64,000 nucleotides of DNA, taken from a virus. The DNA lies in the IMG/VR virus record IMGVR_UViG_3300025138_000014, positions 32,001 through 96,000 of that record; one strand, given 5' to 3'. How positions within the stretch are numbered: position 1 is the first letter of the stretch; every line of letters starts with the position of its first letter. Under the pieces are notes generated by a model that was given only the letters and a program-made list of their open reading frames with translations, had not been told where the DNA came from and made no database searches. The position numbers and the translations under genes were made by a program. This document shows, in pieces, positions 570-28,206 of this stretch.

Positions 570-1589
570 ATGTCTATATATGATCTATTAGAAAACAAAA
601 TAACAACTTATGGTGAGATTGTTTGCTGCTTATTTGAGCACTGCAATCTAAAATGTGTTTTCTGCCCTCAAGATCATAATGATATACAAGGTGCTGACCG
701 TGATGCTATTATGGCTAAAGTGCCACAGATTGTAGATTGGATTAATAATAATAGAAGAACTCAGGCTTATAAATTACATTTAATGGGCGGAGAACTCTTT
801 CAAGATGAATGGATAGATAAAGGTTTCCTAGAAATATATCAGGACTTTATTGATTCTATTATAGCACAAACGGAAGCTGATGTCTACATAAATTTTATAA
901 CTAATTTATGTTTTACTAAGTCAGATGTTGTAATGGAATTTTTAGAAGCAAATGATTTAACTATCTCTGTAAGTTATGATCCAGCTGGTAGATTTACTCC
1001 TAAAGCACATGAGATTTTTGTTTCTAATATTGAAACATATAAAGATAAGATTGAAATGATCTCGCTAGTTGCCACAAAACAGAATATAGCAAAAATTCAA
1101 CGTGGTGATAATTTATTTACATATCTTTACAATACATATCCTTGTGACTTTGACTCATTCTTACCTTCTGTAGATAACTCAAGAAAACTAATGCCTAGTG
1201 AAAGAACTCTTTTTGAGTTTAACAAATTGCTTGTATCTAAATATCCGAAATGTTTAAATGTTGATCATTTCGTTAATCAAAAAACACAGAATAAAATGAT
1301 TTGTACAAGAGGCAATTCTCTTACTGTAATGCCAGACGGATCTATTCCAACTGGTTGTTCTGGAGCAGTATTCTTAAAAGAAGCATCAACACCTGACCTG
1401 GCTGGTCCGGTGATCGTTGAAAAGTTTATGGCTAAATATAATTGCTTCGAGTGTAAATACTTTGCCCGATGCCCATTTAGCTGTTTCATTAAACAAGATT
1501 ATAAACACATTGAGCAAGATATGGACGAATGTGTATTTAAGGCGACATTCAAATATGCAGATAGCATTCATCAACCCACCGCATGCTGA
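570..1589 (+). CDS. Radical SAM protein with SPASM-like C-terminus (paralog of 24199-25323)
   Basis: CNLKCVFC (CxxxCxxC), GGELFQD, C-terminal C...GC...CFECKYFARCPFSC...C. Confidence 0.9.
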   Translation: MSIYDLLENKITTYGEIVCCLFEHCNLKCVFCPQDHNDIQGADRDAIMAKVPQIVDWINNNRRTQAYKLHLMGGELFQDEWIDKGFLEIYQDFIDSIIAQTEADVYINFITNLCFTKSDVVMEFLEANDLTISVSYDPAGRFTPKAHEIFVSNIETYKDKIEMISLVATKQNIAKIQRGDNLFTYLYNTYPCDFDSFLPSVDNSRKLMPSERTLFEFNKLLVSKYPKCLNVDHFVNQKTQNKMICTRGNSLTVMPDGSIPTGCSGAVFLKEASTPDLAGPVIVEKFMAKYNCFECKYFARCPFSCFIKQDYKHIEQDMDECVFKATFKYADSIHQPTAC

Positions 1590-3252
1590 TTGGTCATTAG
1601 CTAATAACTTCACATTTCTACTCATGCAAAGTTATTATAATCGCTTTGGTAAATATGCTGGGCAGATAGAATGGCTTGAATCTCCATATAAATGGAATAC
1701 CTATGAATCCTATGACGAAGTAACATCAGAGGTTATTAGTGCTGATGTAATTATGTTTTCATCTTATACATGGAACTATGTTATCTGTGATGAAATTTCG
1801 GCTAAAATTAAAAAAGAATATCCAAACAAAATATTAGTTTTAGGCGGTCCTCATATAGGTACAAATGAACCAGAACTATTAGCATCACGTCCGCAGTATG
1901 ATTTAATTTGTAGACCTACCAAACCAGGTGAGCCTTTTATGGCCGAGTTGATTGACCAGTTTATTGAAAAGAGAATTGATCCAACATATATCCCATGGGA
2001 GTTAAGGTCTGATATAGAAGTCATACACGATATAAGCAAAGAGGATTATTCAGTTTATGAAGATCACTTAGAATATATTACAAAGCTATTAGATTATTCA
2101 AGAGAACATAAGATGGAGCCTTTCATTGTTTTAGAGACAACAAGAGGTTGTCCTTACAAGTGTGTATTCTGTGAATGGGGTGGCGGTATCAATACAAAGA
2201 TTTATAAAAAGTCTGTAGATATTGTAAAGCGTGATATTAATGCTATGATAAAAGCTGGATATAGAGATGCTTATTTAACTGATGCAAATTTCGGAGCATT
2301 TCTAAAACGTGACTTTGAAATATTTGAATATGCTTGGGATAACAGTTTTAATTTAACAGATATATCCACTATGAAGTCAAAAGATTTACCAAGAAGAAAA
2401 GAGCTGATTGATAAGTGGTTTGAAATAGTAGATAAGCACGTTAAGGCGCCAGGTTCTACCGATGGTGAGGATATGTGGACTGAAACAGCTTTTGTTTCAT
2501 TAGTCCCAACTGTATCCATTCAAAGCAGTTCTGATACAGCCATGAAGTTAGCCGATCGTGTTGATTTAAATACTTATGATAAATTAAAATTAAGTGAATA
2601 TATTAATGAAAGATGTACTGAACACGGATATCCAATTCCAGCATTAGAGTTAATTCTTGCTATGCCCGGTTCTACAATAGATGACTTTTATTTTGAAATG
2701 GAATATATTTGGAACTTTAAAGCATTCGGTTCTTATCGGCACGACTATATGTTTTTGCCTGACTCAAGACTGAACTCTCCAGAATATAAGAAAAAACATA
2801 ATATTGAAACAGTAGAAGTATATTCAGATATTGTAGATGAACACGGCTCTGATAATTGGAACAGTTTATATAAAGACAAGAAATCATATTTTAGAACTAT
2901 CCTATCTTGTTTCTCTTTTACAAAAGAGGAGATGTATGAGATGTGGTTTATGAATAATGCGTGCAACTATATTCTACAGAAATTTTATCCACCTTTTGAG
3001 AAAAAAATGTCACCATCGGTATTTACAAAAGCAGTATATAATATTATAATAGAGTTAGACGAATGGATAGATATATATAATGAGATTAAAGATATTTACG
3101 ACCCAAATACTGCGCCTAAAAGTATTAGACAATTAGGTGGAAAATTTAGAACAGATTTTATAAATGATGTTCTGGAAAAAAATAGAATTATTATTATGTC
3201 GGAGGTTCATGGGGCATGTCAGGGAAGCAACTCACATTACAACTCACATTAA
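1555..3252 (+). CDS. Cobalamin-binding (class B-type) radical SAM protein
   Basis: Likely start MQIAFINPP at 1555; B12-binding-like N-domain (FSSYTWN, LGGPHI); ETTRGCPYKCVFCEWG; DANFG. Confidence 0.85.
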   Translation: MQIAFINPPHADWSLANNFTFLLMQSYYNRFGKYAGQIEWLESPYKWNTYESYDEVTSEVISADVIMFSSYTWNYVICDEISAKIKKEYPNKILVLGGPHIGTNEPELLASRPQYDLICRPTKPGEPFMAELIDQFIEKRIDPTYIPWELRSDIEVIHDISKEDYSVYEDHLEYITKLLDYSREHKMEPFIVLETTRGCPYKCVFCEWGGGINTKIYKKSVDIVKRDINAMIKAGYRDAYLTDANFGAFLKRDFEIFEYAWDNSFNLTDISTMKSKDLPRRKELIDKWFEIVDKHVKAPGSTDGEDMWTETAFVSLVPTVSIQSSSDTAMKLADRVDLNTYDKLKLSEYINERCTEHGYPIPALELILAMPGSTIDDFYFEMEYIWNFKAFGSYRHDYMFLPDSRLNSPEYKKKHNIETVEVYSDIVDEHGSDNWNSLYKDKKSYFRTILSCFSFTKEEMYEMWFMNNACNYILQKFYPPFEKKMSPSVFTKAVYNIIIELDEWIDIYNEIKDIYDPNTAPKSIRQLGGKFRTDFINDVLEKNRIIIMSEVHGACQGSNSHYNSH

Positions 3253-3764
3253 AAAAATGTTTAGATCAATTCGGATTTGCACAGCTATCTGAACCTGAAG
3301 GTCTTGGCGTGATAGATATTGATCAGTTTCAGTTAAGAAATACTGAAGAGCGAGCAAGAGATAATGGAGTTAATGATATACCACCATTTTTACAACTTCG
3401 CTTACACACATTCGGACACTTTTTATATGAAAAATATATTTTAAAAGATTGGCCGGATGCAGTTTTTAATAAGTATCTAATTTGGGACGGAGTGGATAAA
3501 GATAATCAAGGATGGCACACTGATATGTTTGAATCATATGACGTGTTTCTTTTATATTACTTAGATGACACATTTCCAGAAACTGGAGGCAGTATAAACT
3601 TTAAATGGAAAAATGAAGAAGGTATATCTGAAGAATTGTCTTTTCAACCAACAGCTGGAGACTTGTTTATGATTTCTAATAAAAGAGGTTTCTGGCACAA
3701 AGCTGGTCAGTCATCAATACAACGGAGGGTTTGTTCTTTTGACTTTAATACAAACGATAGTTGA
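3216..3764 (+). CDS. 2OG-Fe(II) oxygenase superfamily protein
   Basis: WHTD (HxD), GGSINF, distal HKA...RR. Confidence 0.75.
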   Translation: MSGKQLTLQLTLKKCLDQFGFAQLSEPEGLGVIDIDQFQLRNTEERARDNGVNDIPPFLQLRLHTFGHFLYEKYILKDWPDAVFNKYLIWDGVDKDNQGWHTDMFESYDVFLLYYLDDTFPETGGSINFKWKNEEGISEELSFQPTAGDLFMISNKRGFWHKAGQSSIQRRVCSFDFNTNDS

Positions 3765-4056
3765 CGAAAAAAATATTCTTTGTAAGGAAAGAGACTTGAC
3801 TGCAGAATTATATAATCTTTGGATTACTAAACTGCATGACTTTGAAGATATTCCAGAAAAATACGAACAGTATATGAAAATGATTGATAATCTTGAACCT
3901 TATGCAAATATGCTTAAAGAAGCCATAAGAGAAAAGAATAGTGAAATATGTAAACACTATGGAGTTAATTCTATTTCAGATACACCTCATTCAGTAGAAT
4001 GTATAAACAAATATGGTTATGATAGACCTAATGGAGCCGTACTGGAAAGAGGATGA
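3739..4056 (+). CDS. Hypothetical protein
   Basis: Packed operon ORF overlapping its neighbours; helical; no motif; start uncertain. Confidence 0.55.
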   Translation: MTLIQTIVDEKNILCKERDLTAELYNLWITKLHDFEDIPEKYEQYMKMIDNLEPYANMLKEAIREKNSEICKHYGVNSISDTPHSVECINKYGYDRPNGAVLERG

Positions 4057-4526
4057 TTGCTTTTGACACAGATCTGCTTGTAAATGGATATAAAGTTTTT
4101 GAGGATAAAAAAATACTCTTTACTTTAGGTAAAATACCTGATATAAAAGAATGGGAAGGAGATCAAGTAAAGTCTCCAAAAGGCTTTGATCTCCGACTAG
4201 CTCAAAATTATATTAACAATAAGTATGTTGCGCCAGTATTTGGTGGAGCAGTATTTGGTTATAGTAATATATGGAGTGGAACAGATAGCAATAGTAAAGA
4301 ATGGCACAATGATTTAATTGAAGGTTTTAATCTATTTTTTATGTATTACCTAAGTGATATAACAGAAGGCGGAGAGTTATGTTTCAGAGTTAATGGTAAA
4401 GAAACTGGTTCAATTCAGCCTAAGAAAGATATGCTGGTAATGGGATCTCAAGAAAGATACGTTGAGCATAAAGTGAACGACTGCAATCAGGAAAGAATAG
4501 TGTGTAACTTTGGATACAATATATAA
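4053..4526 (+). CDS. 2OG-Fe(II) oxygenase superfamily protein
   Basis: WHND, GGELCF, HKV...RIV; resembles 3216-3764. Confidence 0.75.
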   Translation: MIAFDTDLLVNGYKVFEDKKILFTLGKIPDIKEWEGDQVKSPKGFDLRLAQNYINNKYVAPVFGGAVFGYSNIWSGTDSNSKEWHNDLIEGFNLFFMYYLSDITEGGELCFRVNGKETGSIQPKKDMLVMGSQERYVEHKVNDCNQERIVCNFGYNI

Positions 4527-5190
4527 AATAGAAGAATATCTGCCTAAAATAGGTCCCTTTAGCATATACGCTCTATCTCATTTAATAACTCAAAGTGAAA
4601 AGTTTAATAATCACTTAGCTATGACTCAGCCAGATAATAAGTTTGAGTTAATGTATGCCAACTGGATAGCCACTGGTAATGAAAGTTTCATAGATTATTA
4701 TAAAGATATAGTTGCTCAAGCGTGCTTTGCTGAATTTCTTGAATGGTATGAGTACATAGCAAAGAACATACTACGAGATGATGTTCAAAGTGAACTTGGT
4801 ATTAAGTTTGACTATGATGCAATTAATTGGGAAAATGAAGTAAAAAAGTCCGAACTATTTGGATGGGCTTGGAGAACAACAGACTACAAACACTTTATGA
4901 ATAATTTGGATAAAGTCAGCAAAATCGGTGCTATGATGAACAACTTTTTTAATGATAGAAAACCGTTAAGCACTTTAGATGCAGATTACTTTGAATCAGA
5001 TCATGCTCAACTTGTACTCGACTCAATAGATAAAATTTTAATAAATAATGATAGACAAGAAATAATAGATCATTTAAATACAGAGAAAATTCTGTGTATG
5101 ATAGAAGTGTACGGTTGGGACAATCGGTTTAATAATATTCTATTGAAATGGATTTCAGACAATAGGAATAAAGTAAAACACTGGGCATGA
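4510..5190 (+). CDS. Hypothetical protein
   Basis: 226-aa ORF coupled to the downstream radical SAM gene (ATGA overlap). Confidence 0.6.
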   Translation: MDTIYKIEEYLPKIGPFSIYALSHLITQSEKFNNHLAMTQPDNKFELMYANWIATGNESFIDYYKDIVAQACFAEFLEWYEYIAKNILRDDVQSELGIKFDYDAINWENEVKKSELFGWAWRTTDYKHFMNNLDKVSKIGAMMNNFFNDRKPLSTLDADYFESDHAQLVLDSIDKILINNDRQEIIDHLNTEKILCMIEVYGWDNRFNNILLKWISDNRNKVKHWA

Positions 5191-6089
5191 TAATATCAAT
5201 AAACCCAACCTACTTTTGTAACTTTAGATGTGATTTCTGCTATCTATCTCCTAAACAATTGGGTGACCAGAAACAGATTTACCTTGAAAAACTAGATGAA
5301 TTATTAGCCCAAGTCCCAGATATAGAACACATTGACTTGTACGGCGGCGAAGTCGGCGCAATGAAAAAGTCCTATTTTTATGGCCTTAAAGAAGTCATTA
5401 GAAAATATTACTCTGGTACAATTAATATAAACACAAATTATTCTATGATGCATCCAGGCTTCTTTGACCCAGATGTTTATCTTTCTGTATCGTATGATTT
5501 TGAAGCAAGAGAAAAGTCTGAACTTGTCTTTAATAATATGATGATGGCTACAGCTCCAATGGCTGTTCTAGTCTTGGCTTCACCAACAGTATTAAAAAAA
5601 GATGTACTGGAGATGATAAGTTTACTAAATATGTGTAGTTCAGTCAGGTCTGTTGAAATTAAACCATATTCTACCAATCAAGCAAATGCTCATCCAGTAA
5701 CACATAAAGATTTTGAAGATCACGTTATTAAGTGGTTAGAGTATGAAGATGAAATGAAGTTCCAGTTTGTAAATGCAGATAGAATCATAGACTCATTGGA
5801 AGGCAACTATAATGCATTCTCTGACGATCATATTTATATTACACCAAATGGAAAATTCGGAGTATTAGAATTTGACAAAGAGGATAAAGAATACTTCCTA
5901 GAACTGGACAGTTGGGACGACTATATACTATGGACTCAAAAAGAAAAAACTGAAATGTCTCCTATCTGTACTTCTTGTAAGTATTTTGGTAAGTGCTTAA
6001 CAGAACATTATAGATATGTGAAAGACCTTACAAATAGTTGTAATGGATATAAAGGATTACTAGATTGGGCTGATTTAAATCTAAATTAG
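5187..6089 (+). CDS. Radical SAM protein with partial SPASM-like C-terminus
   Basis: NPTYFCNFRCDFCY, YGGE, C-terminal CTSCKYFGKC...C. Confidence 0.9.
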   Translation: MIISINPTYFCNFRCDFCYLSPKQLGDQKQIYLEKLDELLAQVPDIEHIDLYGGEVGAMKKSYFYGLKEVIRKYYSGTININTNYSMMHPGFFDPDVYLSVSYDFEAREKSELVFNNMMMATAPMAVLVLASPTVLKKDVLEMISLLNMCSSVRSVEIKPYSTNQANAHPVTHKDFEDHVIKWLEYEDEMKFQFVNADRIIDSLEGNYNAFSDDHIYITPNGKFGVLEFDKEDKEYFLELDSWDDYILWTQKEKTEMSPICTSCKYFGKCLTEHYRYVKDLTNSCNGYKGLLDWADLNLN

Positions 6090-6112: not shown

Positions 6113-6120
6113 TATAAATA
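6113..6120 (+). promoter_or_regulatory. T4-type late promoter
   Basis: Intergenic TATAAATA 33 bp upstream of the tail/virion block; gp55 is present in the window. Confidence 0.8.
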
Positions 6121-6152: not shown

Positions 6153-6506
6153 ATGGCACAATTCGAGCAATTAGAAATTGATCAGGGCACAGATGTCGCT
6201 GTTGAAATGCACCTGACAGATAAGGACGGTTCGGCAAAGAACCTTACTAATCATACAATAACAGCTAAACTTAAAAAGAATTACAGTTCTGATAGCGCAG
6301 ATACGACAAACTTTAATTGTATTGTTGTTTCTCCTGCTACATCAGGTATTGCTACAATCTCTTTAACAAACTCACAAACAAGTGCGCTTAGATCAGGCAA
6401 ATACGTGTATGACGTAGAAATGGCCTTTGTAGATAGCGACTCTAATACAATTATTGAAAGAGTGTTAGAAGGTCAAGCTATTGTAACACCGAGTGTGACA
6501 AGATGA
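6153..6506 (+). CDS. Virion adaptor / BppU-N-like structural protein
   Basis: IDQGTD...LT..QT..L..GKYVYDV...RVLEG...V.P.VT pattern typical of small tail-associated beta proteins. Confidence 0.65.
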   Translation: MAQFEQLEIDQGTDVAVEMHLTDKDGSAKNLTNHTITAKLKKNYSSDSADTTNFNCIVVSPATSGIATISLTNSQTSALRSGKYVYDVEMAFVDSDSNTIIERVLEGQAIVTPSVTR

Positions 6507-6736
6507 GTTTTTCAATAAAACTTAGTGGCGGAACAACGCAAGTAAAAAAAGTTGTTGTCGGAACTCCAGTCAGAAAAGTAACATCAGGTTCTTTTTCTGT
6601 TAACAATATTGCTGGGATTAATCTCTCAGTAGGAGAGAAAATTGAAGGTTCTCTATTAGTATTTGATTCAGCGAGTGGGAATTTTATTCCTGCACAGACC
6701 CTCACAAACACTAATATAACAGGAGAGTCCTACTAA
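6503..6736 (+). CDS. Small virion-associated protein
   Basis: Coupled to neighbours; GSLLVFDSASGNF and a terminal ITGESY like fibre-assembly proteins. Confidence 0.55.
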   Translation: MSFSIKLSGGTTQVKKVVVGTPVRKVTSGSFSVNNIAGINLSVGEKIEGSLLVFDSASGNFIPAQTLTNTNITGESY

Positions 6737-8781: not shown

Positions 8782-8824
8782 ACTAGATTTATTAATCTGG
8801 TTAATACTTTTTTAAGGACGAATT

Positions 8825-11062: not shown

Positions 11063-11065
11063 AAA

Positions 11066-14014: not shown

Positions 14015-14026
14015 GAAAGAAAAGAA

Positions 14027-16510: not shown

Positions 16511-16896
16511 TGGGAAATATGACGAGAGACAGTGTCGACTCTTATATCCAAACTTATTCTGGAGCGAAGTTAAGAACATTTGACAAAACTATTACTATAA
16601 CAACTACAGCATATCAGAATAACAATCCCACTGCTATGGGTGGAACAGGTACTAATACTACGACACATAGGTTTGAATATACAGGTGCTGCCGATTCACT
16701 ATTCGATAACTATATTGATGGAGGTATCGCAGTGGGCCAAAGAGTTTATGCGCAAGATATTGTAGACACTTTAGAGGATGCAGTACAAAGAACAGTTGAT
16801 TTGATTGAAAGTCGAATTGATAACAGATCTATCAGCGCAGCGTTATGTCACAGTAGTTGTCATACAAGCTGTCACACATCGAGAGGAAGACGCTAA
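16510..16896 (+). CDS. Candidate radical SAM substrate/precursor B with C-terminal (CHxS)3-RGRR motif
   Basis: Ends CHSSCHTSCHTSRGRR; same length (128 aa) as A; TAATG overlaps at both ends. Confidence 0.7.
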   Translation: MGNMTRDSVDSYIQTYSGAKLRTFDKTITITTTAYQNNNPTAMGGTGTNTTTHRFEYTGAADSLFDNYIDGGIAVGQRVYAQDIVDTLEDAVQRTVDLIESRIDNRSISAALCHSSCHTSCHTSRGRR

Positions 16897-19183: not shown

Positions 19184-19197
19184 GATTATAATATATC

Positions 19198-19962: not shown

Positions 19963-20965
19963 TACATATGCTGGATACTGGAATTTCAAAAAAGATAAAT
20001 CTCCAGTAAATCAGGCATTTTTAAGAACAGAGATCAACCTTGACATTCTTCACGGCTGTAGCCAGATGTGTCCAGGCTGTTTTATTCCCAGAAAAAACTT
20101 AACTGATCCAAATGGAATGATAGAACTTCATAAGTTGCTTATCAATGGGCAATTTTATCCAGATGAAATCACTATTGGTCCAACTGATATATTTGATGCA
20201 GAAAATTTTGATGAAGTTATGAGACATCCTGGGCTCAAACTTCTTTATGAAATATCAGGTGTCGGATATACAACTACTTTACTACAACATGAAGAAGTTG
20301 TAAAGAGAAAACTTGCTATGATCTGGGATATTTATCAGCACATACATAGAATGCCAGATATGGATTTCAAAATTGTATTTGATATTGACAAATATCTTGA
20401 TGGAGAACTAGATGATTGGTATAAAAAATTAGAGTTATTCAATCTAGGTTCCGTTCAATTTAGGGTAAACTACCATAAAGGTGTGTTTGATAGAATTGGA
20501 TATAATGAGTTATGTAAAAGAGTTAAAGAGGATTTTAATACTCCGATTATTATTACTCCAAGTTTCTTAACTGATAGAAATGTAAGAGGAAAGGTTGATC
20601 AACATCTTGCTTCATTTAGACAAGAGTTATTAGATCAGAAAATAGATAGAGAATGGCTTCAGTATTATACATTCTTTGACGCCGAGTTTAATGGACTTGG
20701 TTGCCAGAACTATTCTTTTTATAATGGAAAGCTATATACAAATCCATTTTTATATGATAATATAATCCAGAGAACACCTAAGTTTGAAACAACTATGGAT
20801 GAAAATACCCTGTTTGATAATATAGATTATGCTCAACAGGTAGATGACTGTAATGGGTGTGAATATATGATGAGTTGTGCAGAGCGCAATATTCACTTAT
20901 ATATGGAGTCACGTAATTTGGAATCATGCGTTGCTCTTAAAGAGTATATGTATGCCCCTCATTAA
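19943..20965 (+). CDS. Divergent radical SAM protein (GPTD family, copy 2)
   Basis: LHGCSQMCPGCFI, IGPTDIF, CNGCEYMMSC...C. Confidence 0.85.
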   Translation: MIVHLNDTYAGYWNFKKDKSPVNQAFLRTEINLDILHGCSQMCPGCFIPRKNLTDPNGMIELHKLLINGQFYPDEITIGPTDIFDAENFDEVMRHPGLKLLYEISGVGYTTTLLQHEEVVKRKLAMIWDIYQHIHRMPDMDFKIVFDIDKYLDGELDDWYKKLELFNLGSVQFRVNYHKGVFDRIGYNELCKRVKEDFNTPIIITPSFLTDRNVRGKVDQHLASFRQELLDQKIDREWLQYYTFFDAEFNGLGCQNYSFYNGKLYTNPFLYDNIIQRTPKFETTMDENTLFDNIDYAQQVDDCNGCEYMMSCAERNIHLYMESRNLESCVALKEYMYAPH

Positions 20966-22115
20966 AAATAATCTATTCTATGAATTAACTACAGAGACAC
21001 AAACCAAACCAGTATCAGCCGTAAAACTTCAGCTTGATGTATTAGACGGATGCCATCATAAGTGTCCGGGTTGTTTTGTTCACAGACGTGGTAATTCTAG
21101 TAATAAACATCAGTTAAGTGATGCTAAAAAATTCATAAGAAGTATAACAGACCAGGGTATTCTAGTTGATGAAATGCTTATTGGTCCTACAGATTTTCTT
21201 GCTTCAGAAAATTTCTATGAAGTTATGCCAGATCTGTTAGATATAATTAATGAAAATTCTCCTATTCTTGCATTTGTTTCAACTCTTATTGATGGAGACT
21301 TGAAGCGATGGACTCAATATATTACAGATAATATTAATATCAATACTGAAATAGAAATTGGTATTGCTACAAATCCTGCAAAGTTTTATGAAGAAGGCTA
21401 TAGACAACTGATTCAAGATAAGTTAGATTATATAGATAAGAATTTGGAACACGAGGTAACTTATACTTTTGTTGTAAATATTAGAGATTATGGTATTGAC
21501 TATGAAAAATTACATAACCATTCTGTCGTTTGTTTTAAAACGGTTTTAGACTTTGTTCCGTCTGTTAGTAGGTCACATAAGAATTACCTCATATTAAAGA
21601 TTTTAGATAAATTTAACGTGTTTTTTAATGAGCTAAGTGCTTATAAAGAAAGCAAAATAAATAACATTATGGTAGACCATTCACACGGTGGTCTGAATTA
21701 TACTGTTTTAAACTACAAGACAGGCAAGTGGTATTTAAGTCCTTTTATGTATGAGAACATGGCTATCTATGATGATATGTTTCATATAGATAATTTCAAT
21801 GATGTTACTGCTATTGTGGAGAAACAGATACAAAGAGCAAAAGGAACTGAGTGCGAAGATTGCCCTCTATTCTTTAGTTGCTATAATAGAAAAATTATAT
21901 TACTCAGAGATTATCTTGGCGTTGATAGATGTATTGCACCTAAAGAAAACATGATGGCACATATACATAACTACAACGGTCCTGCTCAGACTATGTATGA
22001 CTGGGATGGTTATTCAGTTGAGAACGATAAAAACGGATATAGAAAAAAGTTTTTAGTGACTCAAGAGAATGACCCAGAATTAGAACGACTCAGAGAAATA
22101 TCCTATGTTAAATAA
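20952..22115 (+). CDS. Divergent radical SAM protein (GPTD family, copy 3)
   Basis: Likely start MPLIKNN; LDGCHHKCPGCFV, IGPTDFL, CEDCPLFFSC...C. Confidence 0.85.
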   Translation: MPLIKNNLFYELTTETQTKPVSAVKLQLDVLDGCHHKCPGCFVHRRGNSSNKHQLSDAKKFIRSITDQGILVDEMLIGPTDFLASENFYEVMPDLLDIINENSPILAFVSTLIDGDLKRWTQYITDNININTEIEIGIATNPAKFYEEGYRQLIQDKLDYIDKNLEHEVTYTFVVNIRDYGIDYEKLHNHSVVCFKTVLDFVPSVSRSHKNYLILKILDKFNVFFNELSAYKESKINNIMVDHSHGGLNYTVLNYKTGKWYLSPFMYENMAIYDDMFHIDNFNDVTAIVEKQIQRAKGTECEDCPLFFSCYNRKIILLRDYLGVDRCIAPKENMMAHIHNYNGPAQTMYDWDGYSVENDKNGYRKKFLVTQENDPELERLREISYVK

Positions 22116-23241
22116 CGATTGGGCAGACATTGTAAATAACGGCAAAATGTTAGAAGAATATTCTGCAATTAGCCAAATGAAACAATACAAGATTCAAGTA
22201 ACTCTTGAGCTGCTTGAAGGCTGTTCTTATCTTTGCCCGGGTTGTTTTGTAAAACGTAGGGGTAATTGGCATCCAAAATCAATAGCATTATTTCATAGTT
22301 TAGCATATGAACTTAAAGATAGAACTGATATTGTTCTTGATGATATTGTTATCGGACCTACAGATTTCTATGGCGCAGAAAACTTAGAAGAAATACTTGA
22401 TGATCCTAGATTGGCTGATGCTATTCTTATGATGCCTGAGGATAATAGAAACATACAACATAACTGTTCTATTTTAGGTTCTCTATCTGAAAAAGATATT
22501 GAGAGTAAAATTAAGAAAGTTGAAAATTCTAGGCTGGGAGCTGTAGTTAAATGTTGGGATGTGCAAATTGCACTAGATTTAAATAGGTTACTTAACGATG
22601 ATGATTATAGACAAGCACTTGAAAATAGAGTAAAGATGTTTGAAGATAGTTCACTAGAATTTGAAATATCAATGGCAACTAACATTGTAAATAATATTGA
22701 AAGTATATTATTTGAAGCCATAAATTACACTAGAGAAAAATATTCTACAGTTATAGAAATACTTCCATCTGTAGTTAGGTCATTAAGTGCTAATAGCAAA
22801 CATGCCGTGAAACTATTTAAGTGGAACTCCATGCTTGATACTTTTGCCAAAGAGCCGGATTTTAAAAATAAGTTTCATTTCCTACAAGGAGATATATCTC
22901 ATAAGACTTTTCAATATGCAGTTGTTAATATACATTTTGGAAAGTTTTATGCTTCACCATTTATTTATGAAAATGCTCAGATTTATAAAGAATCATTTGA
23001 AATTAAAATTAATGATTCTATCCATGAATCTATACTAGCACATAAAGATGCAATTGTAAACAAACAAATAGAAAGTAGTGCAAATAAAGAGTGTGGTTCT
23101 TGTAAATATTTAACCATATGTTCTCATAGAATGATTCCACAAGTAATGGACACATTTTTTAAAGACCGATATGAGTGCATATTAAATAAAGATGTAATAA
23201 GTATCTGGGATTATGAGGTGTATCGTGGGAATAGTTATTAA
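22105..23241 (+). CDS. Divergent radical SAM protein (GPTD family, copy 4)
   Basis: LEGCSYLCPGCFV, IGPTDFY, CGSCKYLTIC...C. Confidence 0.85.
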   Translation: MLNNDWADIVNNGKMLEEYSAISQMKQYKIQVTLELLEGCSYLCPGCFVKRRGNWHPKSIALFHSLAYELKDRTDIVLDDIVIGPTDFYGAENLEEILDDPRLADAILMMPEDNRNIQHNCSILGSLSEKDIESKIKKVENSRLGAVVKCWDVQIALDLNRLLNDDDYRQALENRVKMFEDSSLEFEISMATNIVNNIESILFEAINYTREKYSTVIEILPSVVRSLSANSKHAVKLFKWNSMLDTFAKEPDFKNKFHFLQGDISHKTFQYAVVNIHFGKFYASPFIYENAQIYKESFEIKINDSIHESILAHKDAIVNKQIESSANKECGSCKYLTICSHRMIPQVMDTFFKDRYECILNKDVISIWDYEVYRGNSY

Positions 23242-24241
23242 CAATAAAAGAGCTGCCCAAGCAGATGCAGACTTTGATGTAAGTTTAGGTCAAGGACATG
23301 AAATAAAAGTCCAGTTCAATTGTGAGATATTATCTGGCTGTGAGTTTAAATGTAAAGGATGTTTTGTTAATAAATTAGGCAACAATGTTGGGTCATTTGA
23401 TAGGTTAAACAATGCCATTGATCTGTTTAGCGCAAATGGATATAGAGTATCAACAATTAATATCGGACCCACAGATTTATTCGGTAATAATAATGTTATT
23501 GAGTTATTGAAAGATGAAACCTTTCGTGAATGTTTAAGCAAAGTTTCTACTATACAATTCGTCACGACCCTAATAAACATTTCGTCAGAAGTAATTGATT
23601 TACTTAACAGCATACCTAAAATAGATGGGTTTATGTATGATGCAAACATAGCTTTACAACCACCAGTAAATTGGGATATGATAGAGGAACGGCTAAAACT
23701 ACTCAACGGTTTTACCGATGATCTAAATTATTATATGGTTTATAATATGGGTAATGATGACGAGTACAATAATAAAGTATTAGAAATGTCTGATATTGTA
23801 GATGATAGATTTGATTCTATTCTTACATTAAATCCATCATTCTTTAGAGCGCCAAAAAGTAAAGTACAAACACATCTAATTGAGAAGTGGAAAAATTATG
23901 ACTTTTCACCTGACTTATATCCAAAGACAATTATTGATAAATCGCAAGGTGGAAGTCTTGAACTAAATTACACATACTGTAATGGTAGGTTTTTCTGGAC
24001 TCCATTTGTATATGATATTGCTATGATCGGAACTAAGGAGTTTGAAGTCAAAGATGAGAACGATATTGAATCTTGGACTGAAGCTAAATCATTTCAATTT
24101 ATGAAACAATTAACGTATTCTAGTGAAACGGAAAACTGTGGTTCTTGCGGTAACATGATGACTTGTATAGACAAAGGGGTTCTAAGTTATATGGAACATC
24201 ATTCAATTAAATCTTGTGTCTTTCCTGGAGTCTTTTCATAA
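23213..24241 (+). CDS. Divergent radical SAM protein (GPTD family, copy 5)
   Basis: LSGCEFKCKGCFV, IGPTDLF, CGSCGNMMTC...C; the start may be GTG at 23225. Confidence 0.85.
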   Translation: MRCIVGIVINNKRAAQADADFDVSLGQGHEIKVQFNCEILSGCEFKCKGCFVNKLGNNVGSFDRLNNAIDLFSANGYRVSTINIGPTDLFGNNNVIELLKDETFRECLSKVSTIQFVTTLINISSEVIDLLNSIPKIDGFMYDANIALQPPVNWDMIEERLKLLNGFTDDLNYYMVYNMGNDDEYNNKVLEMSDIVDDRFDSILTLNPSFFRAPKSKVQTHLIEKWKNYDFSPDLYPKTIIDKSQGGSLELNYTYCNGRFFWTPFVYDIAMIGTKEFEVKDENDIESWTEAKSFQFMKQLTYSSETENCGSCGNMMTCIDKGVLSYMEHHSIKSCVFPGVFS

Positions 24242-25323
24242 TCAAATCCTGTTATAAGATTTTGACCAGTTTTATCCATGTAATTAAACCACATTCTCAT
24301 AATACAATCTGGTAAATCTCTCTCACGATTTTTCCAGTCCCATTGTGTATAGCATCTAAATCCACACTTGTTGTACCACTTACATGATAAGCAACCATTT
24401 TCATCCATATAAGCCTGCATCATGCCAGTATTATCTTTACGCTCAAACTTTGTATTAAAGTCCCTTTGATCGTATCTATCCCATCTACAATTAGATGTAG
24501 AATTATCTGGAAATATGGTAACTTTATTCAGAGCCAAACAGTGCATGTGATTAGACTCATTATAGATTAGATCCTTAATAGGGTTAATATCAGGATAGTT
24601 GTGATATACAAACTTTAGAAACTCCAGATATTTACTATCGGACGGAATCATATAATCATATCCACGGTCTGGAATATAATCGTCAAAATAGAAGTTGTCA
24701 AATTTATCATACAGATAATGAAAATACTCATCATCATCTGCCATGAACTTTTCTATACTGAGAGTAGTTGCTACCATATTAATTGAAGTAATATAATCAG
24801 CAAAATATTCAATGTTCTTTGCGTAGGGACCTTTTGTTGGTCTCCCGTCAAAGTCATAAGAGCAAATAATAAAGCTAGGTATATCAATAGCATTTAAATC
24901 ATCTAATAACTTTTTTAGTCTTTCTCTTTTACTAAATTGAAAAGAAGTAACCCACACAATTTTTATTGTTTGATCATGCTCGTCATAAATCTTTTTAACA
25001 GCTACTAGGAAATCATAATAATATGGATAAAACTCTTCCGATATTCTATCTTGAAATAATTCTCCTCCAAGCATATTGATCTGAATAATATCAGCACGAC
25101 CTTTCATCTTTATAACGTGTTCTTCAACCAATTCAAGCTTTGAAAATATACCCTCACGAGATAGTCCAACTTCAGACTTTTTATCATGGTGGCAGAACGA
25201 GCAGTTGAGATGACAATTCTCAAATAGAGTCATCTCAATCTCTGCTATATCAGGCCGTTTAGCCTCAAGCAAAGTTCTTGTAAAATCATATTCTGGGTTC
25301 GACTGAACCTTAGAGTTGATCAA
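24199..25323 (-). CDS. Radical SAM protein with SPASM-like C-terminus (paralog of 570-1589)
   Basis: LFENCHLNCSFC, GGELFQD, CLSCKWYNKCGFRC...C. Confidence 0.9.
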   Translation of the reverse strand: MINSKVQSNPEYDFTRTLLEAKRPDIAEIEMTLFENCHLNCSFCHHDKKSEVGLSREGIFSKLELVEEHVIKMKGRADIIQINMLGGELFQDRISEEFYPYYYDFLVAVKKIYDEHDQTIKIVWVTSFQFSKRERLKKLLDDLNAIDIPSFIICSYDFDGRPTKGPYAKNIEYFADYITSINMVATTLSIEKFMADDDEYFHYLYDKFDNFYFDDYIPDRGYDYMIPSDSKYLEFLKFVYHNYPDINPIKDLIYNESNHMHCLALNKVTIFPDNSTSNCRWDRYDQRDFNTKFERKDNTGMMQAYMDENGCLSCKWYNKCGFRCYTQWDWKNRERDLPDCIMRMWFNYMDKTGQNLITGFDYEKTPGKTQDLIE

Positions 25324-25717
25324 ACATCATTTCCTCTTCATAGTATTTCCTTATATCTGGAACCATTCCTCTGCTTTCATCCCAATCTTCAAGTACAATA
25401 TCTAGGATAGCATGATAAACATCTGGATCGGTAGTATATCTTTTAAAGTATGGATCGTTATTAAAAAGTAAATCTACATCATCTAGTGCGGCAAAGAAGT
25501 CTTCGTTAAAATCTTCGGAGATCCATTTAGCATAACAGATAGCCACGGCATATGATTTTGCTGGATAAAGCCAAATATCCACTTTCTCATAAAAGTGCAT
25601 GATTGCATTATTAATAATTTCTTCATCAATAACAATATCAACTTTGTTTAGATCATCTTCATGTTCTGTTACCATATGGTGAAATGCTTTTTGTCTTACT
25701 TTCCATTCCTGCATCAC
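25310..25717 (-). CDS. Hypothetical protein between radical SAM genes
   Basis: 135 aa, acidic; overlaps both neighbours. Confidence 0.7.
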   Translation of the reverse strand: MMQEWKVRQKAFHHMVTEHEDDLNKVDIVIDEEIINNAIMHFYEKVDIWLYPAKSYAVAICYAKWISEDFNEDFFAALDDVDLLFNNDPYFKRYTTDPDVYHAILDIVLEDWDESRGMVPDIRKYYEEEMMFDQL

Positions 25718-26769
25718 GCAACTCCTTCTAAATACATTTGCGATTCATCAACATAAGGTGTAATAGCATTTTCACTCATACCATTCATCTTTAATATTTG
25801 AGGTGCTAGTCCTTTCATCTGTTTACAATGTGCTTCAACAGTCTTTTCTCTTTTCATGTCACGTACTGTCTTTTTACAACCATTACATATTTCAAACATA
25901 GGACAACTAAAGCAAGACATTTTCATAGACTGAATATTTGGATCATGCTGTAACGGAGTTTGCATTTTTCCATTCATCTCTTCCTCAAAGTTGATTGGAT
26001 AATCCATATCATCTGCAAAAGAGCCACATGAATAATAATCTCCACCTGGATTAAATGCTCTAATTCCTTCATCACATTTTCTATTTTGCGGACAAGTTGT
26101 AGCACTTCCACCCAGCCGTCTTACCAACTGCTTTGTATTATATTCCCATTCGGTAAGACCTTGGTTATACACGTCAACGTAAATGGCATACATCTTACTT
26201 AATCTGTAAGTACTGCCTTGAACTCCAGAAGCCATAGCATAATTTAATTTACATTCGACATTCATTTCTTTAGCCAGCTTCACATTATCAATAGCACGAT
26301 AATCACTCATATCAGTCATAACGGAAATAAAGTCTGCTCTTTCACCGCAATACTTCAACATAGCATCTTGGCATCTCCAAAAGTCCTCTACAGTAAATTC
26401 GGTAAAATCACCTTTTAATCTACCACCACCAAATTGGAAAGATGTAGCAATACCCATTCGTTCGTGATTAAATAGATCAACCCACTTTTGTGGCTTCATT
26501 AAGAATGGCCATAAGTTTGTAGTGAAACTGATACTGGCTTTATAGTCATGTTCATCTAAGTGATCAATTAGATCCCAATAATATTTGGGCTTGACCATAA
26601 GTGGATCGCCACCATTAATAATTAAAGTATTGGTTTCTGGGTATCTTTTAAGGAATCTGTAGATATAATCTAAATCTAGTAACCCGGCTTTATCTGGGTC
26701 AATAGCGGTAGATGAACAGAATGAGCATTTAAAGTTACACGCTTCTGTAGGTTTAATAATTAGATCCAT
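25714..26769 (-). CDS. Radical SAM/SPASM protein (anSME/peptide maturase-like)
   Basis: IIKPTEACNFKCSFC, GGDPL, C..NRKC...NPGGDYYSC...CFSCPMFEICNGC...C. Confidence 0.9.
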   Translation of the reverse strand: MDLIIKPTEACNFKCSFCSSTAIDPDKAGLLDLDYIYRFLKRYPETNTLIINGGDPLMVKPKYYWDLIDHLDEHDYKASISFTTNLWPFLMKPQKWVDLFNHERMGIATSFQFGGGRLKGDFTEFTVEDFWRCQDAMLKYCGERADFISVMTDMSDYRAIDNVKLAKEMNVECKLNYAMASGVQGSTYRLSKMYAIYVDVYNQGLTEWEYNTKQLVRRLGGSATTCPQNRKCDEGIRAFNPGGDYYSCGSFADDMDYPINFEEEMNGKMQTPLQHDPNIQSMKMSCFSCPMFEICNGCKKTVRDMKREKTVEAHCKQMKGLAPQILKMNGMSENAITPYVDESQMYLEGVA

Positions 26770-27791
26770 TGCTTTTCTTCCGCTAGAGTCATCATCAAGG
26801 TTTTAGGTGCAGGACAGACATCATCCATCCAATAGAGTTGGTGACAATCAGATTTACAATATAAGAAAACTGGGCACTTATAACATCTCTCATCTCTATC
26901 GTTTATTTCTTCACTTATTGTGCACATTCGTGCAGGATTTAATTTTACTACCTCTGCTGGAGTATTTATAGTATCGTAATGTTTTGTTGGTGCAGTATTT
27001 GGACAACCCGCTACTGTTCCATCAGCATTAATAGTAAAAATTTTCTGCTCACAGTCACGACAAAAAGTACCAATACTAAATTGCCCATGTGAAAATTTCT
27101 TATAAACTGAGTCTAAAAATCCATTAAAGACATTATGATCTTTAGTTGTTTTGTGCATCTTCATCCACCAAGCATCTAATTCTCTATTATGTGGAAAAAT
27201 ATCAGTATTAATTTTAGCATTACCATCGTGGGTTAATCTCTCATAACTAATTTCATCAATGCCTATTGATTCCATATAGTCCGCTATCCATAGAGGTTCT
27301 AGTTTTAGAATGTCCTTAGATACCGAAATAAAACATTTCATTCTGTGACCACGAGAAGCTAAAAACTTTACATTGTTTTCCCATAGTTCTCTTTGTTTTT
27401 CATTAGAAAATCTAATATTTGGATCCCAGCTGGTTCCAATACTTCCGCCATCAATACATTCTTCAAGGAATGATAATCTTGCTTCATTTAATTTAAAAAC
27501 TAGATTGCTAGTTATTCCATGGGTACAACGGTCTCCCCATTGATCTTTAGTTATCCGATGAAATTCACGTAAATGATCCATTGGTGCAAGAAGAGGTTCT
27601 CCACCGTGATATTCTAAATGAATTTGATTTGTTCCGTTATCTAATTGATTGACCCAGTTAGCAGTCTTTATATGGTCAAAATAAATCTTTCTACCATTCT
27701 TACCGCTAGTGAAGCAATGGAAACAATTAAGATTGCAGGTTTCCGTTGTCTTCACATACACGCAAGTAAATTTTTGTGTCACTAATGCCAT
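26760..27791 (-). CDS. Radical SAM/SPASM protein (peptide maturase-like)
   Basis: KTTETCNLNCFHC, YHGGEPLL, CRDC...INADGTVAGCP...CYKCPVFLYCKSDC...CP. Confidence 0.9.
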   Translation of the reverse strand: MALVTQKFTCVYVKTTETCNLNCFHCFTSGKNGRKIYFDHIKTANWVNQLDNGTNQIHLEYHGGEPLLAPMDHLREFHRITKDQWGDRCTHGITSNLVFKLNEARLSFLEECIDGGSIGTSWDPNIRFSNEKQRELWENNVKFLASRGHRMKCFISVSKDILKLEPLWIADYMESIGIDEISYERLTHDGNAKINTDIFPHNRELDAWWMKMHKTTKDHNVFNGFLDSVYKKFSHGQFSIGTFCRDCEQKIFTINADGTVAGCPNTAPTKHYDTINTPAEVVKLNPARMCTISEEINDRDERCYKCPVFLYCKSDCHQLYWMDDVCPAPKTLMMTLAEEKQWI

Positions 27792-28206
27792 AACTGAATA
27801 TCAATGCTTCCTGAGTGTTTAATGCACGATGTTTTGTGCCTTTTGGTATTTCTACTTGTTCACCTGGATTTAGTAACTTTGTAGAACCTTCAATTTCTAA
27901 TATTTTATTACCATCGCAGCAATATATTACTACATCTACTGGATCTGTATGTTCTTCAAAAGATGGACCATCAATAGGATTATAAAATATATGCATCGTG
28001 CCTTCATTATAATCAACAATCTTTTCATACATCTCAATTTTTAATGTATTCTTTTCTGCGATTAAAGCCGAAATTTTACCATAATATACCCAATAGTTAT
28101 CTTGTTCAACATACTGTATTCTGTGTTCACTATCTATAACCGAAACATTACAAACATTGAAGCACTGTTCGGAGAGAATAAACTCAAAGAACTGTTCAAA
28201 ATTCAT
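27727..28206 (-). CDS. Cupin/JmjC-like oxygenase
   Basis: SFEEHTDPVDV...G.K...LNPGE.V.IPKGTKHRA. Confidence 0.7.
   Translation of the reverse strand: MNFEQFFEFILSEQCFNVCNVSVIDSEHRIQYVEQDNYWVYYGKISALIAEKNTLKIEMYEKIVDYNEGTMHIFYNPIDGPSFEEHTDPVDVVIYCCDGNKILEIEGSTKLLNPGEQVEIPKGTKHRALNTQEALIFSYGISDTKIYLRVCEDNGNLQS

Follow-up and report, generated by a model that had tools for sequence, protein, structure and literature searches.

A radical SAM gene island beside the tail-fibre genes of a marine T4-like phage, and its proposed role in maturing Cys-His-tailed fibre-associated proteins

Closest described systems

The closest precedent for the phage island described here is the bacterial HXS antiphage system, composed of HxsA, the radical SAM (rSAM) enzymes HxsB and HxsC and the small protein HxsD, in which HxsB and HxsC modify the protein HxsA at an HxS motif (Li et al., Nat Commun 2026, PMC13128918). 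The likeness lies in the use of several rSAMs and a small accessory protein to mature a whole protein with tandem His-x-Ser repeats, and the phage tail has three H-x-S units, as in the HXS target motif. However, the phage system is not a member of HXS. Its repeat has a period of four, an invariant Cys and a C-terminal RGRR; its enzymes score only 17-26 bits against HxsB/HxsC cut-offs of 268-370 (NCBIfam TIGR03976-03979), and the NCBIfam profiles gave no HxsA or HxsD match in the island. It also comprises 4-12 rSAMs plus cupin and 2OG oxygenases, and its genes lie by fibre genes with a target placed in virions, whereas the HXS target resides in the periplasm of the defending cell.

Three further comparisons are informative. 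The anaerobic sulfatase-maturating enzyme anSME (TIGR03942; PDB 4K36-4K39), a minimal rSAM/SPASM that lacks a leader-recognition domain and targets Cys/Ser of a folded protein, is the best structural or profile match of two phage enzyme types, termed rS10 and group A below, and we observe that the last phage repeat, C-H-x-S-R, has the Cys/Arg spacing of the sulfatase motif C-x-P-x-R. Nevertheless, TIGR03942 reaches 42.6 bits against a cut-off of 349, there is no sulfatase in the phage island, the Pro/Ala of the sulfatase motif are absent from the tail, and group A has only four C-terminal Cys. The maturases of ranthipeptides and other Cys repeats (PapB/PapA of freyrasin, NF047865; the CXXX-repeat family, TIGR04115; CefB, 'Cys-every-fifth', NF038107; and CteB) are rSAM/SPASM enzymes that crosslink regularly spaced Cys in short repeats, and PapB is the top full-length NCBIfam match of the phage group B enzyme (1e-10; TIGR04115, 7.5e-9), yet with 35-41 bits against cut-offs of 340-350. 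These systems process small leader-dependent bacterial peptides, with a protease and export, whereas the phage motif is a tag on structural proteins. Finally, in the QhpD/QhpC system of the quinohemoprotein amine dehydrogenase gamma-subunit (TIGR03906), an rSAM/SPASM puts several Cys thioether crosslinks into a small protein that is a permanent subunit of a larger assembly. TIGR03906 aligns with group B over its full length (7e-7), but at 28 bits against a cut-off of 453, and that system has a single enzyme, another motif and is not viral.

Gene content and extent of the island

The window analysed is a 64,000-nucleotide stretch of a 151-kb contig (IMGVR_UViG_3300025138_000014, positions 32,001 to 96,000), which belongs to a marine T4-like phage. 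Its relevant features are the following.

15-569, plus: u184, unknown 184-aa ORF of an upstream half-cassette, with a homologue in the same position in loci L055 and L056
570-1589, plus: group C rSAM/SPASM; CxxxCxxC at residue 25, 7-8 C-terminal Cys, phrog_1802 2e-28
1555-3252, plus: accessory B12-binding (class B) rSAM; PF02310 30.8 bits, PF04055 match, KedN5-type 6.5e-25
3216-3764 and 4053-4526, plus: two 2OG-Fe(II) oxygenase-like genes (2OG-FeII_Oxy_3); PF13640 23.3 and 29.5 bits
3739-4056, plus: small unknown ORF between the two oxygenase-like genes
4510-5190, plus: unknown 226-aa ORF, no family match
5187-6089, plus: rS3-type rSAM, core; PF04055 29.7 bits (at cut-off), phrog_1802 1e-32, four C-terminal Cys
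6153-16123, plus: tail-fibre block of six ORFs; PHROG tail-fibre and structural matches
16124-16510 and 16510-16896, plus: two tandem 128-aa (Cys-His-x-Ser)3-Arg-Gly-Arg-Arg proteins, proposed substrates; invariant C-terminal tail
16896-18080, plus: group A rSAM-like enzyme (rS4); CxxxCxGCF, GPTD and four C-terminal Cys conserved, AF2 model
18077-19183 and 19198-19962, plus: two conserved unknown ORFs that travel with group A; no family matches
19943-24241, plus: four more group A paralogues, starting at 19943, 20952, 22105 and 23213; invariant group A motifs, phrog_31457 matches
24199-25323, minus: group C rSAM/SPASM; CxxxCxxC, 7 C-terminal Cys, phrog_1802 3e-19
25310-25717, minus: small conserved unknown protein of 135 aa, core; phrog_20737 3e-40
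25714-26769, minus: anSME-like rSAM/SPASM (rS10 type), core; PF04055 35.1 bits, 8 C-terminal Cys
26760-27791, minus: group B rSAM/SPASM, 44% identical to the upstream rS0
27727-28206, minus: cupin/JmjC-like, first gene of the minus-strand operon; Cupin_2 31.2 bits, JmjC_2 1e-4
28238-28245, minus: TATAAATA, T4-type late-promoter-like box preceding the cupin operon, in the intergenic gap
28263-28847, plus: 2OG-Fe(II) oxygenase (2OG-FeII_Oxy_5); PF13759 1.2e-14, phrog_81 match

All 11 rSAM-motif ORFs that had been predicted within 28 kb (570, 1555, 5187, 16896, 19943, 20952, 22105 and 23213 on the plus strand; 24199, 25714 and 26760 on the minus strand) are present, with one N-terminal CxxxCxxC in each. 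When ORFs of at least 100 aa were counted across the whole 151-kb contig, only a 12th appeared in addition, at contig 29116-30135, which is 2.9 kb to the left of the window. The 12 occupy 31 kb surrounding the fibre genes and the remaining 120 kb has no such ORF, so the clustering is not due to chance. A third (CHxS)3RGRR protein, of 195 aa, is encoded immediately 3' of the 12th rSAM, just upstream of the window, in a half-cassette with the order rSAM B, third CHxS protein, u224, u184. The island therefore continues beyond the left edge of the window, and while the content proposed for 570-28206 holds, its boundaries do not. The island is also composite: a core cassette common to cultured jumbo phages is combined with a marine add-on consisting of the two 128-aa tail proteins, five divergent group A rSAMs and two unknowns.

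The enzymes flank, as proposed, the tail-fibre block, identified by PHROGs, and the two (CHxS)3RGRR proteins. The last fibre ORF (14027-16123), which contains a collagen-like segment, is always followed by the CHxS genes, rS4 directly adjoins the CHxS pair on its 3' side, and the fibre/CHxS gene order is conserved in loci L009-L048. Pfam domains bear out the interspersed oxygenases (3216, 4053, 27727 on the minus strand, 28263), which stand among unknown ORFs; u184 had no match in Pfam, PHROG or NCBIfam. In related cassettes a cupin gene lies ahead of group B, homologues of the 28263 oxygenase are found inside the core cassette of other phages, and the 25310 protein occurs in nearly all, including RSL2 and Atu_ph07. 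All type-1 loci that are long enough to include the ORFs at 18077 and 19198 have both.

The proposed late promoters fared less well. Copies of TATAAATA do lie in gaps ahead of key genes, namely before the fibre block (6113), the minus-strand enzyme operon (28238, minus), the sheath gene and the portal gene, but with 14 copies against 11 expected the motif is not enriched window-wide. Thus, the box at 28238, and with it the promoter argument for a virion role, is only suggestive.

The enzymes resemble protein and peptide maturases

It had been set beforehand that assignment of the enzymes to cofactor or nucleotide-modification families would count against protein maturation. Their best family and structure matches are instead anSME, PapB, DynA, DarE, CteB, SuiB and ChlB, all protein- or peptide-modifying rSAM/SPASM enzymes. 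The family profile of rS10 can be aligned along its entire length to anSMEcpe 4K36 (E 6e-7); group B has PapB, DynA and anSME as best full-length matches and passes the SPASM domain model (28.3 against 27 bits). For group A, the AF2 model of rS4 (pTM 0.84) matches anSMEcpe with Z 14.3 over 310 residues and anSME, SuiB, ChlB, TigE and CteB at Z 12-14, with CteB as top Foldseek match; its predicted fold is thus like that of anSME despite the lack of a sequence match. Since all family scores are far below curated cut-offs, these enzymes are not members of the matched families and their chemistry cannot be read from homology.

The original prediction had ten enzymes with SPASM-type C-terminal Cys motifs and one of B12 type. 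The latter is borne out by the B12-binding domain followed by the rSAM motif in 1555-3252, although PF02310 (30.8 bits, cut-off 32.1) and the KedN5-type family (87 bits, cut-off 700) fall short; B12 enzymes are found in some related cassettes (L051-L056). As for the former, all ten non-B12 enzymes have CxxCx5C, but the full set of 7-8 SPASM Cys is present in the window only in 570, 24199, 25714 and 26760, while 5187 and the five paralogues from 16896 to 23213 have just four each. The group C enzymes at 570 and 24199 are paralogues (29% identity), the former with weak matches to peptide-maturase families; the four additional group A paralogues share 23-31% identity among themselves and with rS4; and the rS3 type has orthologues in RSL2, Atu_ph07 and marine loci. 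Because CxxxCxxC starts at residues 11-43, no recognisable RiPP-recognition domain is present in the island enzymes.

The tail is invariant and travels with the enzymes

The CHxS tail is invariant over 87 aligned homologues whose bodies are 44-94% identical, and Cys outside the tail is absent in 100 of 116 relatives. Of 240 representatives of clusters drawn from two body families, 233 have the canonical tail, and 213 of these lack any other Cys. In the wider family, the fourth position of the repeat also admits Asn and Ala besides Ser. The three copies in this genome differ in codons but keep the peptide. Besides the 128-aa protein, which has a predicted folded body (pLDDT 81.5) and a low-confidence tail, different bodies carry it: those of 195 aa, the 296-aa gp170 of Atu_ph07, jumbo-phage proteins of 178-187 aa, and proteins of 396-541 aa, among them one that has a Pfam Gly_rich_2 domain and another with a PA14-like one.

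Co-occurrence of tail and enzymes, as had been anticipated, is essentially without exception in both directions, including three cultured jumbo phages that were inspected. In each of the 50 viral loci retrieved via the tail protein, rSAM-like ORFs adjoin it, in conserved order. Conversely, among 80 loci found with group B, whose gene directly adjoins the tail-protein gene in other phages, a tail ORF starts -25 to +39 nt from the enzyme stop in 69 and lies within about 1 kb in five more; the remaining six end too early to tell, so that 74 of 74 with room carry it. Marine T4-likes, contigs of 240-260 kb and the cultured phages RSL2, Atu_ph07 and pPa_SNUABM_DT01 all share one core order: cupin, B, tail protein, u224, C, rS10, rS3, u25310. 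Conserved synteny overstates the number of independent observations, because related phages share ancestry; this is mitigated by tail-protein identities as low as 31-45% and by the very different phage types.

A tail-bearing relative resides in virions

Outside support for a virion component rather than a secreted product, as originally inferred, comes from Atu_ph07. Its tail-bearing gp170 was detected in purified virions (8 peptides, covering 35% of the sequence), being most abundant in the top gel band, and the neighbouring rSAMs gp171, gp168 and gp165 are not in the virion list (PMC6102473, Table S5). The listed mass of gp170, 31.89 kDa, agrees with that of our translation. No reductant is listed for the gel buffer, so the top-band position may stem from disulfides formed by the three Cys of the tail, or from a trimer that withstands SDS, and need not indicate an enzymatic crosslink.

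Proposed function and alternatives

We favour, at a probability of roughly 60% and without mass-spectrometric or biochemical evidence for any member, that the rSAM/SPASM enzymes make covalent changes to the tail carried by virion proteins associated with the fibres. The 16-residue C-terminal tail would be an exposed, portable tag on the two 128-aa proteins and the 195-aa protein, which we take as folded, fibre-associated virion proteins encoded right after the tail-fibre genes, in a gp38-like position. The core that travels with the tail (cupin, group B, group C, the anSME-like and rS3-type rSAMs and two small unknowns) would act on the whole protein, as anSME, QhpD or HxsB/C do, before or during virion assembly. 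Thioether or C-C crosslinks at Cys/His are the likeliest inferred changes, possibly also Cys-to-formylglycine; the cupin and 2OG enzymes may add hydroxylation, and the five group A paralogues, two unknown ORFs and the B12 enzyme may be lineage-specific additions that diversify the chemistry.

The most serious competitor, though still unlikely, is that the Cys-His tail is an unmodified structural tag for metal binding or disulfide oligomerisation, the rSAMs acting on something else, for instance other residues of fibre proteins or a glycan. T4 gp37 offers an analogy in its His-coordinated iron, and a Zn/Fe site on the three-fold axis of the fibre tip can be pictured. Strict invariance of Cys and His in proteins otherwise lacking Cys, the location among fibre genes, and gp170 at the top of an apparently non-reducing SDS-PAGE, which disulfides would explain, all suit such a tag. 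It leaves unexplained, however, why group B is joined to the tail gene wherever this can be judged, often with overlapping stop and start codons, and why four rSAM types follow the tail onto unrelated bodies and phage lineages; and the core cassette shows no other conserved candidate substrate that is Cys-rich or repetitive.

We give considerably less credit to release of the tail as a small modified peptide or redox cofactor, in the manner of PQQ, mycofactocin or a classical RiPP, with the body as a long leader. PqqA and MftA do have short, C-terminal cores, as here next to SPASM enzymes, and the body could serve as recognition element. But family searches detected no peptidase or exporter in the island or core cassette, consistent with the predicted absence of an exporter or leader protease; the bodies are conserved, predicted to be folded, highly varied and up to 541 aa long with adhesin-like domains; and the Atu_ph07 homologue is a virion protein at substantial (35%) coverage. 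Least plausible of all, to the point of being nearly discounted, is a pile-up of auxiliary metabolic or nucleic-acid-modifying genes (viperin-like, QueE, MoaA, NrdG-like) in a hypervariable island. Host-recognition clusters of pelagimyophages are known to collect varied genes (PMC7029224), and weak N-terminal matches to MoaA, NrdG, viperin and QueE models exist, but these span only the shared rSAM core, whereas full-length alignments identify protein/peptide maturases, and strict gene order across distant phages with obligate tail-protein linkage is at odds with random accumulation.

Covalent modification of the tail thus remains our preferred reading, with the tail as substrate, the type of chemistry and the virion role inferred only, whereas gene content, tail invariance, co-occurrence in both directions, the fold class of the enzymes and the presence of one tail-bearing relative in virions rest on the data presented. 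The proposed post-translational pathway is supported as protein modification, but the label 'RiPP-like' fits only loosely, since what would be modified is a folded protein tagged at its C-terminus and not a leader-core peptide. We found no paper describing this system. As a probable phage-encoded protein-maturation system, the island hints that proteins of phage particles undergo a chemical finishing step not described so far.

Enzyme inventory and genomic setting

Our preferred reading of this island, to which we assign a probability of about 0.6 with its chemistry untested, is that radical SAM (rSAM)/SPASM enzymes covalently modify the C-terminal (CHxS)3RGRR tail of fibre-associated virion proteins, referred to here as tail proteins. 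The eleven CxxxCxxC ORFs of the original prediction are all present, and a twelfth was found upstream of the window, with a third tail protein directly after it; no further ORF of at least 100 aa with this motif occurs in the remaining 120 kb of the contig. In all twelve enzymes the motif is found once, near the N-terminus, and it is invariant in the alignments of groups A and B and of the rS10 type. These groups were defined by pairwise BLAST, as follows.

Radical SAM-like enzymes and associated genes (window positions unless marked as contig).
Group A, 23-31% identical: 16896-18080 (rS4), 19943, 20952, 22105 and 23213, plus strand
Group B, 44% identical: contig 29116-30135 (rS0, upstream of the window); 26760, minus strand
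Group C, 29% identical: 570, plus strand; 24199, minus strand
Singletons: 5187, plus strand (rS3 type); 25714, minus strand (rS10 type)
B12-domain enzyme: 1555-3252, plus strand
Tail-fibre block: 6153-16123
Two 128-aa tail proteins: 16124-16896

In its longest frame the B12-domain enzyme would open with a TTG at 1417 and overlap the preceding gene (570-1589) by 173 nt; the likelier start is the ATG at 1555, which reduces the overlap to 35 nt.

The contig belongs to a T4-like myovirus, as judged from its terminase, sheath, portal, scaffold, major head protein, helicase, SbcCD and DNA polymerase. The sequence identity of the major head protein to the counterparts in Phage C48C1, Methylophilales phage Melnitz and Pelagibacter phage HTVC008M is 60-69%. 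Near-identical DNA was detected in the seawater metagenomes from eight studies. No cultured phage matched in a megablast search with 25 kb of sequence. The island has the gene for a VrlC-like giant protein (DUF4815), which lies outside the window, upstream, on one side and the genes for neck and terminase on the other, a position that corresponds to the 'host recognition cluster' of pelagimyophages (PMC7029224). Interspersed among the enzymes, as had been predicted, are four oxygenase-type genes, namely, two P4H-type 2OG enzymes, a cupin/JmjC-like protein and a 2OG-FeII_Oxy_5 protein, together with six ORFs without any family match. The late promoters that had also been predicted find only partial support: TATAAATA boxes occur at 6113, 28238 (minus strand), 30777, 35231, 37577 and 43831, all in short intergenic gaps, and precede the fibre block, the minus-strand enzyme operon, the sheath, the portal and other structural genes, but the motif occurs 14 times in all versus 11 by chance. 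Elsewhere, a 645-aa protein (28844-30781, plus strand) brings together GT25 and PLOD-type glycosyltransferase (PF25342, 1.5e-44) domains with a 2OG oxygenase domain at its C-terminus; its substrate could be the Pro-free collagen-like G-x-K segment at 15344-15541 of the fibre gene 14027-16123. A 367-aa 'dehydrogenase' (52221-53324, plus strand; phrog_9582, 1e-110) lies amid replication genes.

Radical SAM and SPASM features of the enzymes

The PF04055 gathering score of 29.5 bits was reached only by the enzymes at 25714 (35.1) and 5187 (29.7), with six others at 18.6-23.1 bits, and Pfam returned no match for four of the five group A proteins. Searches of the PDB with single enzymes yielded weak MoaA matches or nothing, and with the group A family profile nothing meaningful; alignment of group A with the rS10 family by hhalign was confined to the CxxCx5C stretch, at 5.8% probability. 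The alignment of 89 group A sequences contains an invariant GCxxxCxGCF and four C-terminal cysteines that are nearly invariant, and has GPTD where GGEP is usual. An AlphaFold2 model of rS4, the first group A enzyme (pLDDT 78.6, pTM 0.84), matched anSMEcpe with a Z of 14.3 (rmsd 4.5 over 310 aa, residues 27-382), and also SuiB (13.7), ChlB (13.2), CteB (12.9) and TigE (likewise in the Z range of 12-14). On the strength of this predicted structure we accept the group A proteins as putative rSAM enzymes that are divergent and whose SPASM-like domain is reduced; their rSAM identity is not shown by sequence alone.

The original prediction of ten SPASM-type C-termini stands for groups B and C and for the enzyme at 25714, which have seven to nine C-terminal cysteines, as in a full SPASM domain with two auxiliary [4Fe-4S] clusters; with TIGR04085 (cut-off 27 bits), rS0 scored 28.3, 26760 23.7 and 25714 22.1. 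It holds only in reduced form for group A and 5187, which lack the seven-cysteine SPASM motif and have four conserved C-terminal cysteines only (CxxCx5C plus one). Two rS4 orthologues from other viral loci (L047:14304-15500 and L048:881-2077) keep CxxxCxGCF but have lost the CxxCx5C cysteines; therefore, either the auxiliary cluster is dispensable or those copies are non-catalytic. The enzyme at 1555-3252 has the layout of a class B (cobalamin-dependent) radical SAM enzyme, with an N-terminal B12-binding domain (PF02310, 30.8 bits, marginally below the cut-off of 32.1) followed by an rSAM domain, and reaches 87 bits against the 700-bit cut-off of the KedN5 subfamily.

Tail proteins and their linkage to the enzymes

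The 128-aa tail proteins have 152 homologues. An alignment of 87 sequences, whose bodies share 44-94% identity with the protein of the window, has a single fully invariant block, C-H-x-S-C-H-x-x-C-H-x-S-R-G-R-R. For the 195-aa tail protein upstream of the window, 761 homologous clusters at 90% identity were retrieved. Among 240 cluster representatives drawn from both body families, the canonical tail is present in 233, 213 of which have no other cysteine. The three copies in this genome encode the same tail peptide with different codons. The predicted body fold is a helix, a long hairpin and a helix, with the tail at low confidence, and fold searches with the body (PDB Foldseek, VIA wide with a best Z of 5.7, BFVD, Atlas) returned nothing credible. 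Three variants of the 128-aa tail protein, 208-209 aa long (P0020, P0021 and P0026), have an insertion of about 70 residues in the hairpin region, with tail and flanking helices unaltered. The same tail also terminates unrelated longer proteins of 396, 413, 461 and 541 aa, including one with a Pfam glycine-rich domain (461 aa) and one with a weak PA14 match (413 aa), and thus behaves as a portable C-terminal tag.

Co-occurrence of enzymes and tail in other viral genomes, which the original prediction had put forward as a check, was found in both directions. In every one of the 50 IMG/VR loci that the tail protein retrieved, rSAM-like ORFs adjoin it. Conversely, among 80 loci retrieved with a group B enzyme, drawn from at least 344 viral contig relatives, the tail ORF starts -25 to +39 nt from the enzyme stop in 69 and about 1 kb downstream in five; the other six end within 300 nt, too short to show a tail ORF, so that all 74 loci with room contain it. 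Mapping of locus ORFs onto the island proteins revealed two recurrent arrangements, the first of which recurs in contigs of 240-260 kb as well as in jumbo phages in culture.

Recurrent arrangements and cultured carriers (u224 and u25310 are small unknown ORFs).
Core: cupin, group B, tail protein, u224, group C, sometimes the B12 enzyme, rS10 type, rS3 type, u25310, with or without a 2OG oxygenase
Marine add-on: fibre gene, two 128-aa tail proteins, rS4, two unknowns, four more group A genes
Core in Ralstonia RSL2: ORF066-081, tail protein ORF068
Core in Agrobacterium Atu_ph07: gp172-164, tail protein gp170
Core in Pseudomonas pPa_SNUABM_DT01: PA10_00067-54, tail protein PA10_00065

In the genome of the window, one complete set of core enzyme types is distributed over both strands, groups B and C are duplicated, and the add-on is present as well. 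These loci are not independent events, because the carrier phages are related; however, the linkage spans T4-like marine, phiKZ-related and Rak2-like phages, which shows that it is long-term. The two small core unknowns had no usable match in the protein atlas. No phage record was matched by the 128-aa tail protein in tblastn, probably because its body is restricted to marine phages and its tail is removed by filtering. In a scan of genome contigs with narrow patterns, true relatives were confined to three phage-like contigs (FZLS01000005, 78 and 29; L062-L064) of one MAG, 'Rhodobacteraceae bacterium Water_Bin34'. The fibre, tail-protein and rSAM genes of their cassette follow the order of the phages, and the contigs are probably phage DNA binned with a bacterial genome, not a bacterial system. 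The 'tail' matches of three further loci (L065-L067) were rejected as simple CHTS DNA repeats without RGRR or an rSAM neighbour.

Presence of a tail protein in virions

The virion proteome of Atu_ph07, obtained by ESI-MS/MS, includes gp170 (31.89 kDa, 8 unique peptides, 35% coverage), which was detected in gel bands 1-9 and was most abundant in band 1, and does not list the rSAM enzymes gp171, gp168 and gp165 (PMC6102473, Table S5). The translated tail-bearing ORF has exactly the listed mass, as do the neighbours gp176 and gp177. Since band 1 otherwise contains proteins of 75-139 kDa, gp170 ran far above the size of a monomer. No reductant is named in the description of the gel buffer (PMC6102473), and therefore this shift may reflect disulfides or an SDS-stable oligomer; an enzymatic crosslink is not proven.

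Relationship to known systems and alternative explanations

Over their full length the enzymes resemble the protein- or peptide-modifying rSAM/SPASM enzymes anSME, PapB, DynA, DarE, QhpD, CteB and SuiB, but no family cut-off was reached, all being missed about ten-fold. Membership in the anSME, HXS and PapB families was rejected on these grounds. The best anSME score is 42.6 bits versus the 349-bit equivalog cut-off of TIGR03942; like the phage enzymes, anSME has no N-terminal recognition domain, but the sulfatase motif that it modifies, C/S-x-P/A-x-R, has a Pro/Ala position that the phage tail lacks, and no sulfatase gene was seen. Against the PapB-type ranthipeptide maturase (NF047865, cut-off 340 bits), rS0 scored 41.3 and 26760 30.5. 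In HXS defence, HxsB and HxsC, with HxsD, modify HxsA at S-H-R-S-S, with a shift of +8 Da (PMC13128918). The phage enzymes score 22-26 bits for HxsB (cut-off 370) and 17-26 for HxsC (cut-off 268), NCBIfam, HxsA and HxsD included, has no match for the tail proteins or the small unknowns, and the H-x-S unit alone is shared; HXS is nonetheless the closest functional precedent for the phage cassette.

It is because of this full-length resemblance, with HXS as precedent, that we propose modification of the tail. The core enzymes would introduce Cys-based thioethers, His-centred crosslinks and/or formylglycine derived from Cys, and hydroxylation would fall to the cupin and the 2OG enzymes, to give a fibre-associated virion protein; any assignment of steps to individual enzymes is inference only. 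Complex prediction for rS4 with the adjacent tail protein scored 0.00 and gives no verdict either way. A purely metal-binding or disulfide tag would account for the invariant cysteines and histidines of the tail, but it leaves the obligate linkage to the enzymes unaccounted for, and we consider it unlikely.

The original prediction had envisaged a RiPP-like pathway without exporter or leader protease. Family searches indeed found no peptidase or transporter among the island ORFs, but the strict RiPP definition (leader-core precursor, leader peptidase or exporter, released small product) is not met, and the tail carriers are folded proteins of 125-541 aa. Release of the tail as a peptide or cofactor is quite improbable, given this lack of a protease or exporter, bodies that are varied as well as folded, and a tail carrier resident in virions. 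That the rSAMs are metabolic enzymes unrelated to the tail is scarcely credible, being contradicted by the conserved gene order and linkage. Beyond tail modification itself, it is tempting to speculate, although we think it unlikely, that oxygen-sensitive radical chemistry converts the Cys/His tag of 16 residues into a 'warhead', reactive or crosslinked, at host-recognition fibre tips. Examples would be thioether or His-linked macrocycles and formylglycine aldehydes. Such groups could link fibre parts covalently, perhaps with attachment to the collagen-like, Lys-rich fibre that its PLOD-like neighbour would hydroxylate, or, alternatively, could engage the host receptor.

Novelty and implications

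Literature searches on pelagimyophages, jumbo phages and SPASM/tail fibre/RiPP/virion gave no functional account of the cassette and no description of the tail, in line with the original statement that no system of this architecture is known to have been characterised; phage genome papers mention 'radical SAM cassettes' in passing or contain gene lists only. Maturation of a Cys/His repeat on a protein by rSAM/SPASM enzymes is known logic; what is new is the phage setting, the virion target, the tag and the number of enzymes. To our knowledge, covalent maturation of phage virions is otherwise limited to proteolysis, autocatalytic isopeptide or chainmail links, and glycosylation.

The family is abundant, with 761 clusters for the 195-aa body alone, at least 344 viral contig matches for group B and eight seawater studies for this phage, and cultivable carriers exist among phages of Agrobacterium, Ralstonia, Burkholderia and Pseudomonas. 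They include RSF1 alongside RSL2, and S13/FLC6 of Burkholderia. If our preferred reading is true, an rSAM battery acting on virion or fibre proteins would be a new type of virus-particle chemistry and a new substrate class for the rSAM/SPASM superfamily. It would also be a conceptual mirror of HXS defence, in which the same kind of enzyme acts on an HxS-repeat protein and phage DNA entry is blocked. Were the warhead to exist as well, it would represent a new class of enzymatic virion maturation, with a tag transferable among unrelated receptor-binding proteins.
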